Below are positions 32,500-37,046 of a stretch of 64,000 nucleotides of DNA, in pieces (position 1 is the first letter of the stretch; every line of letters starts with the position of its first letter). A model generated the notes under the pieces. It worked only from the letters and a program-made list of their open reading frames with translations, was not told where the DNA came from and did no database searches. This DNA is from Escherichia coli. GTDB lineage: Bacteria; Pseudomonadota; Gammaproteobacteria; Enterobacterales; Enterobacteriaceae. Position numbers and translations under genes: made by a program. Location: NCBI RefSeq assembly GCF_009931435.1, contig NZ_CP043414.1; one strand, given 5' to 3'.

Positions 32500-32625
32500 A
32501 TCAAACCATCACCAGCGATAACTCTTTGCCAAGCGCCTTAGCCGCAAGCTGGACGGCGTCGATTTTTGTCGCATGGTGCAAGTTAAATAAGCGCGTAATT
32601 TCCTGTTTAGGTTTGCCTAATATCA
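32500..32625 (-). pseudogene. hicB: hicB antitoxin 3' fragment (about 40 C-terminal codons) with a 1-nt frameshift
   Basis: Reverse translation gives ...LHHATKIDAVQLAAKALGKELSLVMV*, and GKPKQEITRLFN in the adjacent frame; one extra A in caaAgtt shifts the frame. Confidence 0.65.
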
Positions 32626-32656
32626 TGTACCCACAATAACACGAGGGGGTACAACA

Positions 32657-32827
32657 ATGAACATCGGTAAAGCAATCATCAACTACGCAGCGCGTCGCAA
32701 CATGGACATTACCTGATTGACGATGAGACCGTGGCGTTCTGGGAAGCGGATAACGATTGTGAATGGATGTTCTCCTACATGATTGGTAATGATGGTTTCC
32801 TCCACTTTAAAGGCAATGTGTATCTGC
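32657..32827 (+). pseudogene. 5' part of a small unknown gene, interrupted by the IS element and carrying an internal frame shift
   Basis: Strong SD (ACGAGGGGG) and ATG at 32657 encode MNIGKAIINYAARRNMDIT then a stop; the +2 frame continues ...LIDDETVAFWEADNDCEWMFSYMIGNDGFLHFKGNVYL up to the IS boundary. Confidence 0.5.
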
Positions 32828-32835
32828 TGTAGTGG

Positions 32836-33656
32836 TCAACAAAAATTGGCCACGGCTTTAGAGTTTTTCCAGAACAATCGTTCTGATTCATTCGGCGTCA
32901 AACCACCGTTATATTGATGAGGTCTGAGCTGGCTGTAATATCCCGTGATGTAGTTTGTTATCGCTGCGCTGGCTTCGCTAAAATTAGCGTATCCATTATC
33001 TGGTACCCACTCCGTTTTCAGGCTTCTAAAAAAACGTTCCATCGGGCTGTTATCCCAGCAATTTCCCCGGCGACTCAGGCTTTGTTTTATCTGATATCTC
33101 CACAGTAACTGTCTGAAATTTCTGCTGGTATAGTGGCTCCCTTGATCCGAGTGATACAGCAAATTAGCGGGCTTTCCTCGCGCTTCCCAGGCCATGGACA
33201 GCGCTTTCGTTGTCAGTGCAGAGTCCGGGAAAAATGACATCGCCCAGCCAACCGGTTTACGGGAAAACAGATCAAGCACAACGGCTAAATAAGCCCAACG
33301 TTTACCCGTCCAGATATAAGTCACATCGCCACACCAGACCTGATTAGGCTCTGTTACTGCAAACACTGGCGTTCAAGATAATTGGGGATCTCTACGTGTT
33401 CCGTAGACGCCTTCTTATATCGATGGCCAGGCTGCTGACAGCTGATGAGATTAAGTTCTTTCATCAGCTTTGTTGCTCGCCAGCGCCTCAGTTTTACGCC
33501 TTTAGTTGTGACCATCGCGGCAATATTACGTGCACCTGCGGAACCATTACTTTCGCGATAGCTTTCACGAACAAGACTGAGTAATGACACGCGCGCGACA
33601 TCAGGCTTCTTTGGCTGCCGCCAGTATTTATAGCTGCTGCGATGAACCCCAAACAC
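32836..33656 (-). pseudogene. IS3-family transposase OrfB (DDE integrase domain), split by an extra frameshift near 33354-33366
   Basis: Two overlapping ORFs (33354-33656 and 32836-33366) in different frames together cover the DDE domain. Confidence 0.7.
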
Positions 33657-33700
33657 GTTGCATACAACGGCAACAGGAAACCGCGCCCTGAGTTTCTCAA

Positions 33701-34012
33701 CTAATGAGAACTGTTCAGGGAGTCTGACATCAAGAGCGCGGTAGCCTTTTTTAATATATCCCTTTCCATTTCAACGCGTTGAAGTCTTTTCTTCAGCTCG
33801 CGTATTTCAATCTGCTCAGGCGTCATTGGTGAAGCTGTGGGGGATTTTCCCGCTCGTTCCTCTTTCAACTGGCGGACCCACTTATCCATCGTGGATTTAC
33901 CGACATTCATTGCCGTAGCAGCGGCTGCAACCGTGTAATGCTGATCGAGTACAAGCTGGGCAGCTTCGAGGCGAAACTCTGGGCTAAAATTACGTCTGTT
34001 ACGTCCGGTCAT
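33701..34012 (-). CDS. IS3-family transposase OrfA (HTH, leucine-zipper-like)
   Basis: 103 aa, [38 protein letters not shown]...; similar to IS911 OrfA. Confidence 0.85.
33746..33752 (-). promoter_or_regulatory. Programmed -1 ribosomal frameshift heptamer (A AAA AAG) of the IS3-family element
   Basis: Reverse complement of cttttttt near the end of orfA; classic IS3-family slippery site. Confidence 0.6.
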
Positions 34013-34078
34013 AATGTCACCTGTTTTTGACTATGAGGCGATGATATCACCTCTATTCAGGTGGCCAAATTCAGTGTG

Positions 34079-34265
34079 CCACTACAGTATGGCTAAGATG
34101 GAATCAGAGATTAAATCACTTAAAGCTGATAACGCCGCATTACGAAAGAGTTTAAAACTGATTGATGAGACTAATGCGGTTATGATGGATCATGTATTCC
34201 CTGAGTGGCGAAATGAAACTAAACCTACACAATATAAGAAACCTACACTTCGAGTGGTTGCATAA
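34079..34265 (+). pseudogene. 3' part of the IS-interrupted small gene (coiled-coil tail)
   Basis: The frame continues across the IS: ...GNVYL | RMAKMESEIKSLKADNAALRKSLKLIDETNAVMMDHVFPEWRNETKPTQYKKPTLRVVA*. Confidence 0.45.
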
Positions 34266-34721: not shown

Positions 34722-34770
34722 AGATAATCCTCTTTGAAAACGACCATCATCTATAGTTCAATTCATCGAT

Positions 34771-34953
34771 TTAATTAATGATACTTGAAAGCGTTACACA
34801 CAGCAGAAATGCCAATATGTGCCATGAATATACGATAGTTAATCCTACAGTAAGACAAATCAAAAATTCAACCATAGGTAAATCCTCAAATAAGAAAAAG
34901 GTTAGCGGGGGGTGATTCCCCCCGTAGACGTTGACCAGCTCAACATCTTTCAT
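34771..34953 (-). CDS. Small hydrophobic peptide (60 aa; internal start would give 34 aa: MVEFLICLTVGLTIVYSWHILAFLLCVTLSSIIN)
   Basis: ORF with a hydrophobic C-terminal segment; the internal ATG has GAGGA upstream. Confidence 0.35.
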   Translation of the reverse strand: MKDVELVNVYGGNHPPLTFFLFEDLPMVEFLICLTVGLTIVYSWHILAFLLCVTLSSIIN

Positions 34954-34973
34954 ACATTTATTTATAACGCGTT

Positions 34974-35540
34974 TTAAGACACATCAAATTCATCGTCTTC
35001 TTCTGGTTCTTGTTCCGGTTCATCCATTAATGGTAATTCTTCTTCCTCGTCTTCTCCCAAATCAGCATTTTCGAACAAGTCCCCTACTTCATTTAAACGA
35101 AGCTCGATGATCTCCCTTAGCTTATTCTTCAATGTTTTCTGATCAGTGGCGGATTCTAAAATTTCTAGGGCATCGATTGTGGCGATCTGCAAGATAGTCT
35201 GCTTCACCTTCCCACAATATTCAGCTAGTTCCTGTTCTACATACCCGACCGGAATCAGGAGATTCATTGCTTCCTGGTTCTCTCGTTCGGCTGCATCTGC
35301 TAATGCTCTCTCACGGCGTAATTTCTCTACGTCGATTTGTTCCTTGATAGAAGTTTCTTTAAGCGGGTTAATGATGTTCTTCAAGACCCAATCACACCCA
35401 GGCTTCGCCGGGACACGTCTTGTATTTGTGTTATAAGGTAGACCCCTTTCTAACCATTTCTTAGCGGCGTTAATTGTATAGCCGTATAAGCGGGAAATTT
35501 CTGTAAGGGTTAATTCTTCTTTCATCCGGTTATCCTCCAT
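34974..35540 (-). CDS. Phage terminase small-subunit (lambda Nu1)-like HTH protein with acidic C-terminal tail
   Basis: 188 aa; N-terminal HTH-like LTLTEISRLYGYTINAAKKWLERGLPY, central EKLRRE coiled-coil segment, C-terminal DEEEELPLMDEPEQEPEEDDEFDVS; resembles the Nu1/TerS layout. Confidence 0.6.
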   Translation of the reverse strand: MEDNRMKEELTLTEISRLYGYTINAAKKWLERGLPYNTNTRRVPAKPGCDWVLKNIINPLKETSIKEQIDVEKLRRERALADAAERENQEAMNLLIPVGYVEQELAEYCGKVKQTILQIATIDALEILESATDQKTLKNKLREIIELRLNEVGDLFENADLGEDEEEELPLMDEPEQEPEEDDEFDVS

Positions 35541-35886
35541 TAAATTTGCGTAAAATTATTTATCTGATCTACGCATTCAGGAGAGCGCCTAAAACGCTTT
35601 CTAACGACATGAAAGATCTAGGCGTGGAAAGGAATTGGCGGGTGTTAATAGTCGCGTAGCGACCGCGCTGGTGGGCTGCACTGCACCTGTTTTGAAATCT
35701 CACACGCACATCAAATACCGGGGTGCCGAAAACTCCCTTTATTTCATCCGCGGAACAGTACCTTTTTAATTTGTCAAGCATTAATTTCTTAATTTAATTA
35801 CTAAATCTCACCCCAATAATTGAAAAAATATCAAAAATCAATAAAGTAAGCATCTAAAAGTCAGTCCATACCAAAAGAGGTATAAA

Positions 35887-36666
35887 ATGAAAAACATTAT
35901 CGCTGCTATCGTGCTTTCTGCTACTGCTTTCGGTGCTGATGCTGCGTCCTTTGATTGCACTAAGGCTATAACCAAATCAGAGAAGTTTATTTGTGCTAAT
36001 GAGTCAATCTCCGCACTGGATTCTAAACTTCATGAAGTATATGTTAAGGCTGTTAAGATTGATCCGTCTCTTAAACAAGAGCAACGCAACTGGAATAAAA
36101 CTGTTCGTGATACAATGATCAATATCGGGCAGATTCAGCCACTGGAGGCTGTATACAACGCTCAAATCCAAAACTTGATGAATGTATTATCTAAAGAAGA
36201 AACCGCGTCAGAGAGCGTTACAGATGATTCTGCAAAGGTTGAAGAAGAACAACCGAAACAGGAAGAAGTAAAGAAACTGAATGTTACCGCGATTTACGCA
36301 TGTACTGCAAAATTTACATGGAAAGTTATCGATGGTGAGGAAACAGAAGCTGTAAAAGATTACTTATACGGAAACAAAGATCATGATGATAAAGGCGGTA
36401 AACTTAAAATCAAACTGGTAGATGATGTTCCTGTGTATTTTGTTTACACCGACAAATATAACGTTTATAAATCACCACTCAAACCAGCTAAAGAAAATCC
36501 AAACGCAATGGAGGGTAAATCCAAACAGGATACTATTGGACGTGTTAACACTTATAACATCTGGGTAAGCAAAAAAGGTGACATGCGTCTTGAAGTTATT
36601 GAACCAAAATATGATTCTGAATATAAACACACTCAATTTGCATGTGACATGGTAGACGCAGAGTAA
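35887..36666 (+). CDS. Secreted protein with N-terminal DUF1311 (LprI-like) domain and unknown C-terminal domain
   Basis: Signal peptide MKNIIAAIVLSATAFGADA; FDCTKAITKSEKFICANESISALDSKLHEVY matches the DUF1311 N-terminal pattern; AT-rich. Confidence 0.65.
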   Translation: MKNIIAAIVLSATAFGADAASFDCTKAITKSEKFICANESISALDSKLHEVYVKAVKIDPSLKQEQRNWNKTVRDTMINIGQIQPLEAVYNAQIQNLMNVLSKEETASESVTDDSAKVEEEQPKQEEVKKLNVTAIYACTAKFTWKVIDGEETEAVKDYLYGNKDHDDKGGKLKIKLVDDVPVYFVYTDKYNVYKSPLKPAKENPNAMEGKSKQDTIGRVNTYNIWVSKKGDMRLEVIEPKYDSEYKHTQFACDMVDAE

Positions 36667-36925
36667 GAGGTGAAATGATGCAATTCAATAGCATGAAGAT
36701 TACTCAAAAATGGTGGGATGCGATGAAAGCTAACCACCAGAACGATATTAATTAAGTAACATTTTAGATATACAGCACCCAGCTAACAGATCACCTTTTA
36801 TGGATTTCATTATAACCCCTTTGATCTGGAAACTATGTTAATTAGTTGATTTCTAAGCCTTGTCCTTGTGATGGGGCTTTTTATTGCAAAATTTTTAGTT
36901 ATTTTGGGTTGACTACATTCGGGTT

Positions 36926-37046
36926 GCCAATTCGCCTGGCTAACTCTTGCTGAGTGATTTCTGACTGTAAAAAAGCATTTAACAGCAATACCTTAGAGGC
37001 GACGCTCAAAGGCACTTCAATAAAGTGATCGTGACTATTTAATGGC
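36926..37046 (-). pseudogene. hicB: hicB antitoxin internal fragment (about codons 59-98)
   Basis: Reverse translation NSHDHFIEVPLSVASKVLLLNAFLQSEITQQELARRIG, then divergence (NPNVVNPK*); stop codons upstream, no N-terminal region. Confidence 0.65.

Follow-up and report, generated by a model that had tools for sequence, protein, structure and literature searches.

A split hicB relic in Escherichia coli: a probable history of toxin deletion, integration of a serine-recombinase phage and decay of the prophage at an insertion sequence

Why does an Escherichia coli chromosome carry the antitoxin gene hicB in two pieces with no toxin gene hicA beside it? The locus lies in a stretch of 64,000 nucleotides from contig NZ_CP043414.1 (RefSeq assembly GCF_009931435.1), the whole of which is called the window here. 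A preliminary description had seen in it an antitoxin that was split by an insertion and a toxin that was apparently lost. The split and the absence of hicA stand, but mechanism and history have to be put differently: sequence comparison identifies the insert as what is left of a phage with a putative serine recombinase, and the loss of the toxin gene appears to be an older and separate matter. Very probably, three layered and independent events are superimposed at this locus, namely deletion of the toxin gene, integration of a phage into the hicB relic that remained, and decay of the prophage in association with an insertion sequence (IS).

The two pieces of hicB and their chromosomal neighbours are arranged as follows:

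32501..32614, minus strand: hicB 3' fragment, Lys102-Val138 plus stop codon, forming the bacterial arm of the left attachment site attL (translation, tblastn, Prokaryotic Genome Annotation Pipeline, PGAP)
36924..37049, minus strand: hicB middle fragment, Ser61-Gly101 (translation, tblastn, PGAP)
31016..32422, minus strand: ydcR, left chromosomal flank and downstream neighbour of hicB as in K-12 (list of open reading frames, PGAP, K-12 gene order)
37227..37457, plus strand: yncJ, right chromosomal flank (list of open reading frames, PGAP, K-12 gene order)

When K-12 HicB (138 amino acids, from NC_000913.3) was compared with the window by tblastn, residues 61-104 matched positions 37048-36917 (E=1e-23) and residues 100-138 matched positions 32620-32504 (E=2e-21). 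At the protein level both fragments are 95-97% identical to residues 61-138 of the K-12 protein. The minus-strand translation of 36926-37048 is SPLNSHDHFIEVPLSVASKVLLLNAFLQSEITQQELARRIG and that of 32501-32626 is MILGKPKQEITRLFNLHHATKIDAVQLAAKALGKELSLVMV followed by a stop; the latter reads without interruption, and the one-nucleotide frameshift previously assigned to the 3' fragment therefore disappears. The reading frame of the middle fragment runs on into phage DNA, where it gains the residues NPNVVNPK before it stops. Alignment with the intact hicAB locus of K-12 confirmed that the two pieces are collinear parts of one hicB around about 4.3 kb of unrelated DNA, as had been proposed, the foreign DNA measuring 4,311 bp. 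The gene order in the window is that of K-12, ydcR-hicB-hicA-yncJ-rlhA, minus hicA, and the locus occupies the orthologous chromosomal position. E. coli 2020CK-00188 (NZ_ABACVG020000001.1, RefSeq) is 100% identical to the window over 32400-37300, and PGAP annotates in this strain two hicB pseudogene pieces (the 3' piece without the N-terminus, the middle piece without both termini), a frameshifted IS3-family transposase, a hypothetical protein and an LprI-family protein.

With the type II toxin-antitoxin system hicAB of K-12 (b4532/b1438) the window locus shares the chromosomal slot between ydcR and yncJ, but it lacks hicA, the promoter and the N-terminal, HicA-binding domain of HicB, and the remainder, which codes for the helix-turn-helix (HTH) domain, is in two pieces. 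Missing are both a hicA adjacent to and upstream of hicB and a full-length HicB in which a toxin-binding N-terminal domain is followed by an unbroken DNA-binding domain at the C-terminus. The locus is pseudogene debris and not a working toxin-antitoxin system; of the features by which a functional hicAB would be recognized, none is present.

The key to the history is the piece of the hicAB locus that is missing altogether:

37049..37050: junction of a 444-bp deletion, where microhomology is limited to a single G (alignments to NZ_CP024232.1 and K-12)

Relative to K-12 and NZ_CP024232.1 the window is devoid of 444 bp (3243-3686 in coordinates of the K-12 locus), which comprise hicB codons 1-60, the hicA-hicB spacer, the whole of hicA and about 44 bp upstream of hicA, that is, the hicAB promoter region. 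In keeping with this, K-12 HicA found no tblastn match in the window (best E=1.1), and the earlier statement that hicA and the N-terminal codons of hicB are absent is correct, the number of missing codons being 60. Exactly the same junction, to the base, is present in LF82 (phylogroup B2) and in 2013C-4282, which carry no phage at hicB and each hold a contiguous pseudogene of 237 nucleotides that PGAP labels 'hicB, incomplete, missing N-terminus'. The junction was found in 1,093 of 5,426 complete E. coli genomes, O25b:H4-ST131 included, and the two of them that were examined for phage, LF82 and 2013C-4282, are phage-free. This count was obtained with a 60-nucleotide probe centred on the junction, for which a match in one piece was required, the E-value cut-off being set so that half-matches were excluded, and it is consistent with at least 1,167 genomes that lack the deleted segment entirely. 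The hicA-less allele is old and common, occurring in about 20% of complete E. coli genomes. According to a review of toxin-antitoxin systems (PMC7167474), the chromosomal content of such systems differs between E. coli phylogroups, and no type II system is common to the four reference strains compared (phylogroups A, B1, E and B2).

The window allele has the identical deletion junction and a nearly identical sequence to this relic of B2-type E. coli (LF82, ST131), but while the relic is contiguous there, it is in addition broken at codon 101/102 by the 4,311 bp in the window. Counted on the alignment, the hicB 3' fragment differs at one position from the 2013C-4282 relic versus about 7-8 positions from K-12 or LF82, and both window fragments carry the haplotype of the phage-free 2013C-4282 relic, the phage-bearing NZ_CP024232.1 having a K-12-like hicB haplotype at attL. 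Because the junction is common to phage-free genomes and the relic haplotype is present in the window, hicB would already have been a toxin-less pseudogene when it was split. Deletion first is the most parsimonious order, and toxin loss most likely predates the split. The tempting story of an insertion that killed the antitoxin and led to the purging of the toxin needs correction, given that the toxin-less allele is that old and widespread.

What, then, is the DNA that separates the two fragments? Apart from an IS it is made up of the two ends of a phage genome:

32615..32827, plus strand: left (integrase-proximal) prophage end, matching the first ~210 bp of the phage and 97% identical to NZ_CP024232.1 locus 1943-2152
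34087..36923: right prophage arm, the last ~2.8 kb of the phage, 93% identical to NZ_CP024232.1 locus 34914-37745
from 32657, plus strand: start of a phrog_6147-type gene with a 1-nucleotide deletion, cut off by the IS (gene comparison, PHROG match of the intact homologue)
to 34265, plus strand: small gene truncated at its 5' end, in the right prophage arm
34974-35540, minus strand: terminase-small-subunit-like gene (PHROG phrog_57)
35887-36666, plus strand: LprI-family gene, the product of which begins with a hydrophobic, signal-like stretch (PHROG phrog_14799, PGAP)

About 20 other complete E. coli genomes contain an intact element of about 35.8 kb with the same left and right junctions at hicB, and about 21 genomes carry the same attL. 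In NZ_CP024232.1 (strain 2014EL-1346-6) the 35.8-kb prophage lies between a hicB 3' piece on the one side and the hicB 5' piece plus hicA on the other. Among its products are terminase, portal, major capsid and tail proteins as well as a Rha-family regulator; near its left end, by attL, lies the gene for a 559-residue 'recombinase family protein'. Since the latter combines the Pfam domains Resolvase, Recombinase and Zn_ribbon_recom with a match to the integrase family phrog_95, it is classified as a large serine recombinase. These domains are encoded in the intact relative and not in the window, whose IS occupies the place of the corresponding phage section. Judged by sequence, the 4.3-kb insert is the remnant of a prophage of ~35.8 kb that would have used an enzyme of this type. 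The only intact open reading frames surviving in the stump are the small-terminase-like and the LprI-family gene.

The attachment sites tell how the phage entered. For both hicB and a second site, ycdX, attB, attL and attR were aligned in register (sequences in window orientation):

32613..32619: attL core TTGCCTA (ancestrally TTGCCAA), probable crossover TT at 32613-32614
36924..36930: attR core TTGCCAA, probable crossover TT at 36924-36925
K-12 hicB attB: …GTTTAGGT-TT-GCCAATTCGCC…
hicB attL in NZ_CP024232.1: …GTTTAGGT-TT-GCCAAATATCATG…
hicB attR: …CATTCGGG-TT-GCCAATTCGCC…
attP as reconstructed (predicted): …CATTCGGG-TT-GCCAAATATCATG…
ycdX attB (K-12): …ATATTTGGGA-TT-TCCGGGATGGC…
ycdX attL: …ATATTTGGGA-TT-GCCAAATATC…
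ycdX attR: …CATTCGGG-TT-TCCGGGATGGC…

The plus-strand GCC of the Gly101 codon occurs at both junctions of the window (32615-32617 and 36926-36928) and had been taken for a possible 3-bp target duplication. It is instead part of a 7-bp block of identity, TTGCCAA, between hicB attB and the reconstructed attP, as expected from site-specific recombination, and only GCC was noticed in the window because of a single-nucleotide polymorphism in attL (TTGCCTA). A sister prophage with nearly identical ends and a recombinase gene of the same length as the hicB-type gene (1,680 nucleotides) lies inside ycdX, which encodes a zinc phosphatase, in NZ_CP157110.1 and several other genomes. The attB sites in hicB and ycdX share only TT and a loosely similar left half-site. 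At ycdX the bases on either side of TT differ between attP and attB, which confines the exchange to the TT dinucleotide. Serine recombinases are characterized by such a 2-bp crossover. By analogy, the crossover at hicB would also have occurred at TT, which reads AA, within the Lys102 codon, on the sense strand of hicB. At hicB and ycdX alike, and with attP as reconstructed, attL and attR each join one half of attP to one half of attB, reciprocally, with a 2-bp crossover and free of a target duplication, and the entire attB is retained in the 237-bp relic at about 120 bp from either of its ends.

Phages phiC31, Bxb1, TP901-1 and SPbeta represent the class of temperate phages that integrate by large serine recombinases. 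The element at hicB resembles intragenic integration by such enzymes in the 559-residue Resolvase/Recombinase/Zn-ribbon protein of its intact relatives, in the split open reading frame and in the 2-bp exchange with little other identity between attP and attB. It departs from that class in that its integrase is at most 30% identical to that of any deposited phage (best tblastn identity among 50,697 deposited phage genomes) and in that the stump in the window has no integrase gene and is therefore immobile. No earlier report of a prophage integrating in hicB or ycdX was found in the literature searched, and the only hicAB mentioned in the LF82 paper is carried by a phage. The pair of phage and attB thus looks undescribed, although intragenic insertion by serine integrases and truncation of prophages by IS elements are themselves standard. 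In practical terms, hicB codons 101-102 (TT within TTGCCAA) can be defined as the attachment site of an uncharacterized serine-integrase prophage and ycdX as that of its sister.

Between the two ends of the prophage sits an insertion sequence:

32828..34086, minus strand: IS3-family, IS911-like insertion sequence of 1,259 bp (TG...CA ends, terminal inverted repeats, PGAP 'IS3 family transposase, frameshifted')
33701-34012, minus strand: orfA of the IS911-like element, within 32828..34086

The element has the TG...CA termini, imperfect inverted repeats (27 nucleotides, TGTAGTGG...CCACTACA) and orfA/orfB in -1 frame arrangement that characterize the IS3 family. Full-length copies are present in other genomes, and alignment with the RM10410 copy revealed two additional base pairs (GT) at IS position 721-722, which interrupt orfB and result in a defective transposase. 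Altogether it differs from that copy by six substitutions and the 2-bp insertion (99.4% identity), and megablast located it at a single place in 2020CK-00188. A 3-bp target duplication was not found around the element, which is flanked by TGC and GTA. Furthermore, its flanks map about 32.8 kb apart in the intact phage (NZ_CP024232.1 locus 2152 and ~34904). As the flanks are that far apart and not duplicated, the IS marks an internal deletion of the prophage. The IS stands in place of ~32.8 kb of phage DNA, which in the intact relative contains the integrase and all annotated structural genes (capsid, portal, large terminase, tail). A simple insertion should have left a target duplication; its absence agrees better with a deletion associated with the IS, and we infer a role of the IS in the loss of phage DNA on these grounds. 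All of this is known from 'grounded', that is IS-truncated, prophage remnants, which likewise have an IS at an internal scar, no target duplication, few cargo genes and both att junctions; nothing about the present case is unusual, the IS in the window merely being defective itself.

The anatomy of the locus, its att sites, the shared deletion junction and the haplotypes are shown by the sequences; the order of events we infer as follows. An old deletion of 444 bp would have taken the hicAB promoter, hicA and hicB codons 1-60, leaving a 237-bp hicB 3' relic beside yncJ. Subsequently, a temperate phage of ~36 kb equipped with a large serine recombinase would have entered attB in the HTH-coding part of this relic (codons 101-102), with strand exchange at TT within the 7-bp identity of attP and attB. 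Finally, ~32.8 kb of the prophage, integrase included, would have been lost in association with the IS911-like element, now defective, so that 213 bp on the left and 2.8 kb on the right remain as a stump presumably no longer able to excise. The history of the hicB locus is one of ordinary genome decay.

The opposite order deserves consideration, in which the phage inserted into an intact hicAB and hicA together with the hicB 5' end was lost later in this lineage only, for example by selection against an unneutralized toxin. About 20 lysogens do show the phage entering an intact hicAB and hicA kept beside a truncated hicB, and a single deletion that removes hicA along with the N-terminal domain of HicB would offer a non-toxic route. 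However, the deletion junction of the window is base-for-base that of 1,093 phage-free or otherwise unrelated genomes, and with 1 bp of microhomology its recurrence at the same nucleotide is unlikely; moreover, the fragments in the window belong to the phage-free relic haplotype and not to that of the lysogens. We therefore regard insertion before deletion as quite improbable. Far less credit still can be given to a transposable element or composite transposon that jumped into hicB, with GCC as the resulting 3-bp target-site duplication. Such a view draws on GCC at both junctions and on the IS3-family element inside the insert, as members of this family duplicate 3 bp of their target. Yet between the IS ends (32828 and 34086) and the hicB junctions lie 213 bp and 2.8 kb, respectively, and the IS is not flanked by a duplication, the DNA at both hicB junctions represents the two ends of a 35.8-kb prophage, the common block in other strains is the 7-bp TTGCCAA, and the same phage ends are joined to ycdX with TT as the only shared sequence.

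As the window covers just 64 kb of the genome, the fragments could also be thought of as a paralogous hicB relic, with an intact hicAB residing elsewhere. Synteny with ydcR-hicB-hicA-yncJ-rlhA of K-12 speaks against this, as does a blastn search on the chromosome of 2020CK-00188, which uncovered no second copy of the deleted K-12 segment; the search reached chromosomal copies down to ~65% nucleotide identity, and a hicAB more diverged than that or plasmid-borne would be a different system. The query with the deleted segment hit one place in 2020CK-00188 compared with two in control lysogens. Hence, the chance that the window holds a mere paralogue is minimal, and the caveat to this effect in the preliminary description does not apply.

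Several points nevertheless weigh against the sequence of deletion, integration and decay favoured here. Deletion as the first step rests on parsimony, and in principle the relic allele might have recombined into the locus after integration. The intermediate states were not seen, and within the collection of 5,426 genomes no close relative is available beyond the identical 2020CK-00188 (next best flank identity 96.8%). Activity of the recombinase and crossover at TT are deduced from comparison of sequences; attP was reconstructed from attL and attR, its excised form had no exact match in IMG/VR when 29-nucleotide and 20-nucleotide probes of the reconstruction were used, and no similar phage has been deposited. 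With regard to the last step, the IS may have caused the 32.8-kb loss, by adjacent deletion or by recombination between two copies, or it may just sit at the scar.

For biology at large the window locus carries little weight, as it consists of non-functional debris, both hicB pieces of which had already been flagged by the RefSeq pipeline. The lead worth pursuing lies outside the window, in the lysogens that keep hicA next to a 101-residue HicB. In about 20 genomes the prophage resides in an otherwise intact hicAB; hicA is kept, and HicB is cut after Gly101 and extended by the eight phage-encoded residues NPNVVNPK and a stop (NZ_CP024232.1 locus 37741-38271), so that most of the HTH DNA-binding domain at its C-terminus is gone. 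This truncation could derepress hicAB in the lysogens, which provide a natural experiment on hicAB autoregulation, with hicA beside a HicB devoid of its DNA-binding domain. One may go further and speculate that hicB codons 101-102 serve as the dedicated attB of an undescribed temperate phage family, with the ycdX prophage as sister, and that integration and excision switch hicAB autoregulation in a manner akin to active lysogeny or else stabilize the prophage. We consider this unlikely. If true, lysogeny would remove the DNA-binding domain of HicB and leave hicA and the neutralizing domain of HicB in place, and the window would be a fossil of phage-toxin-antitoxin interplay in a lineage already without toxin.

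Some minor observations remain. The window backbone (31500-38300) is only 93-97% identical to nearly all of the 5,426 complete E. coli genomes; for the flanks, 2020CK-00188 is identical and the next best genome reaches the value given above. At least at the hicB locus, the window appears to derive from a sparsely sampled lineage. The 444-bp deletion is flanked by a short inverted repeat and not by a direct repeat (K-12 locus ~3243 and 3686; window 37049|37050): in K-12 orientation the promoter-side breakpoint falls in a palindrome upstream of hicA, GTAAACA-TTAG-TGTTTAC, and the other breakpoint lies directly beside GGTAAA, whose reverse complement, TTTACC, is retained. When the right prophage arm was compared by megablast with the 50,697 deposited phages, no related temperate phage was retrieved and the only match was a piece of ~385 bp of the LprI-family gene in RB49-like lytic phages. 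This 5' portion of the gene (35881-36267) shows 94-96% nucleotide identity with hypothetical genes of the lytic, T4-like Krischvirus group (RB49, GEC-3S, MIZ4 and others), a similarity which suggests that the LprI-family gene may have been exchanged recently between temperate and virulent phages.

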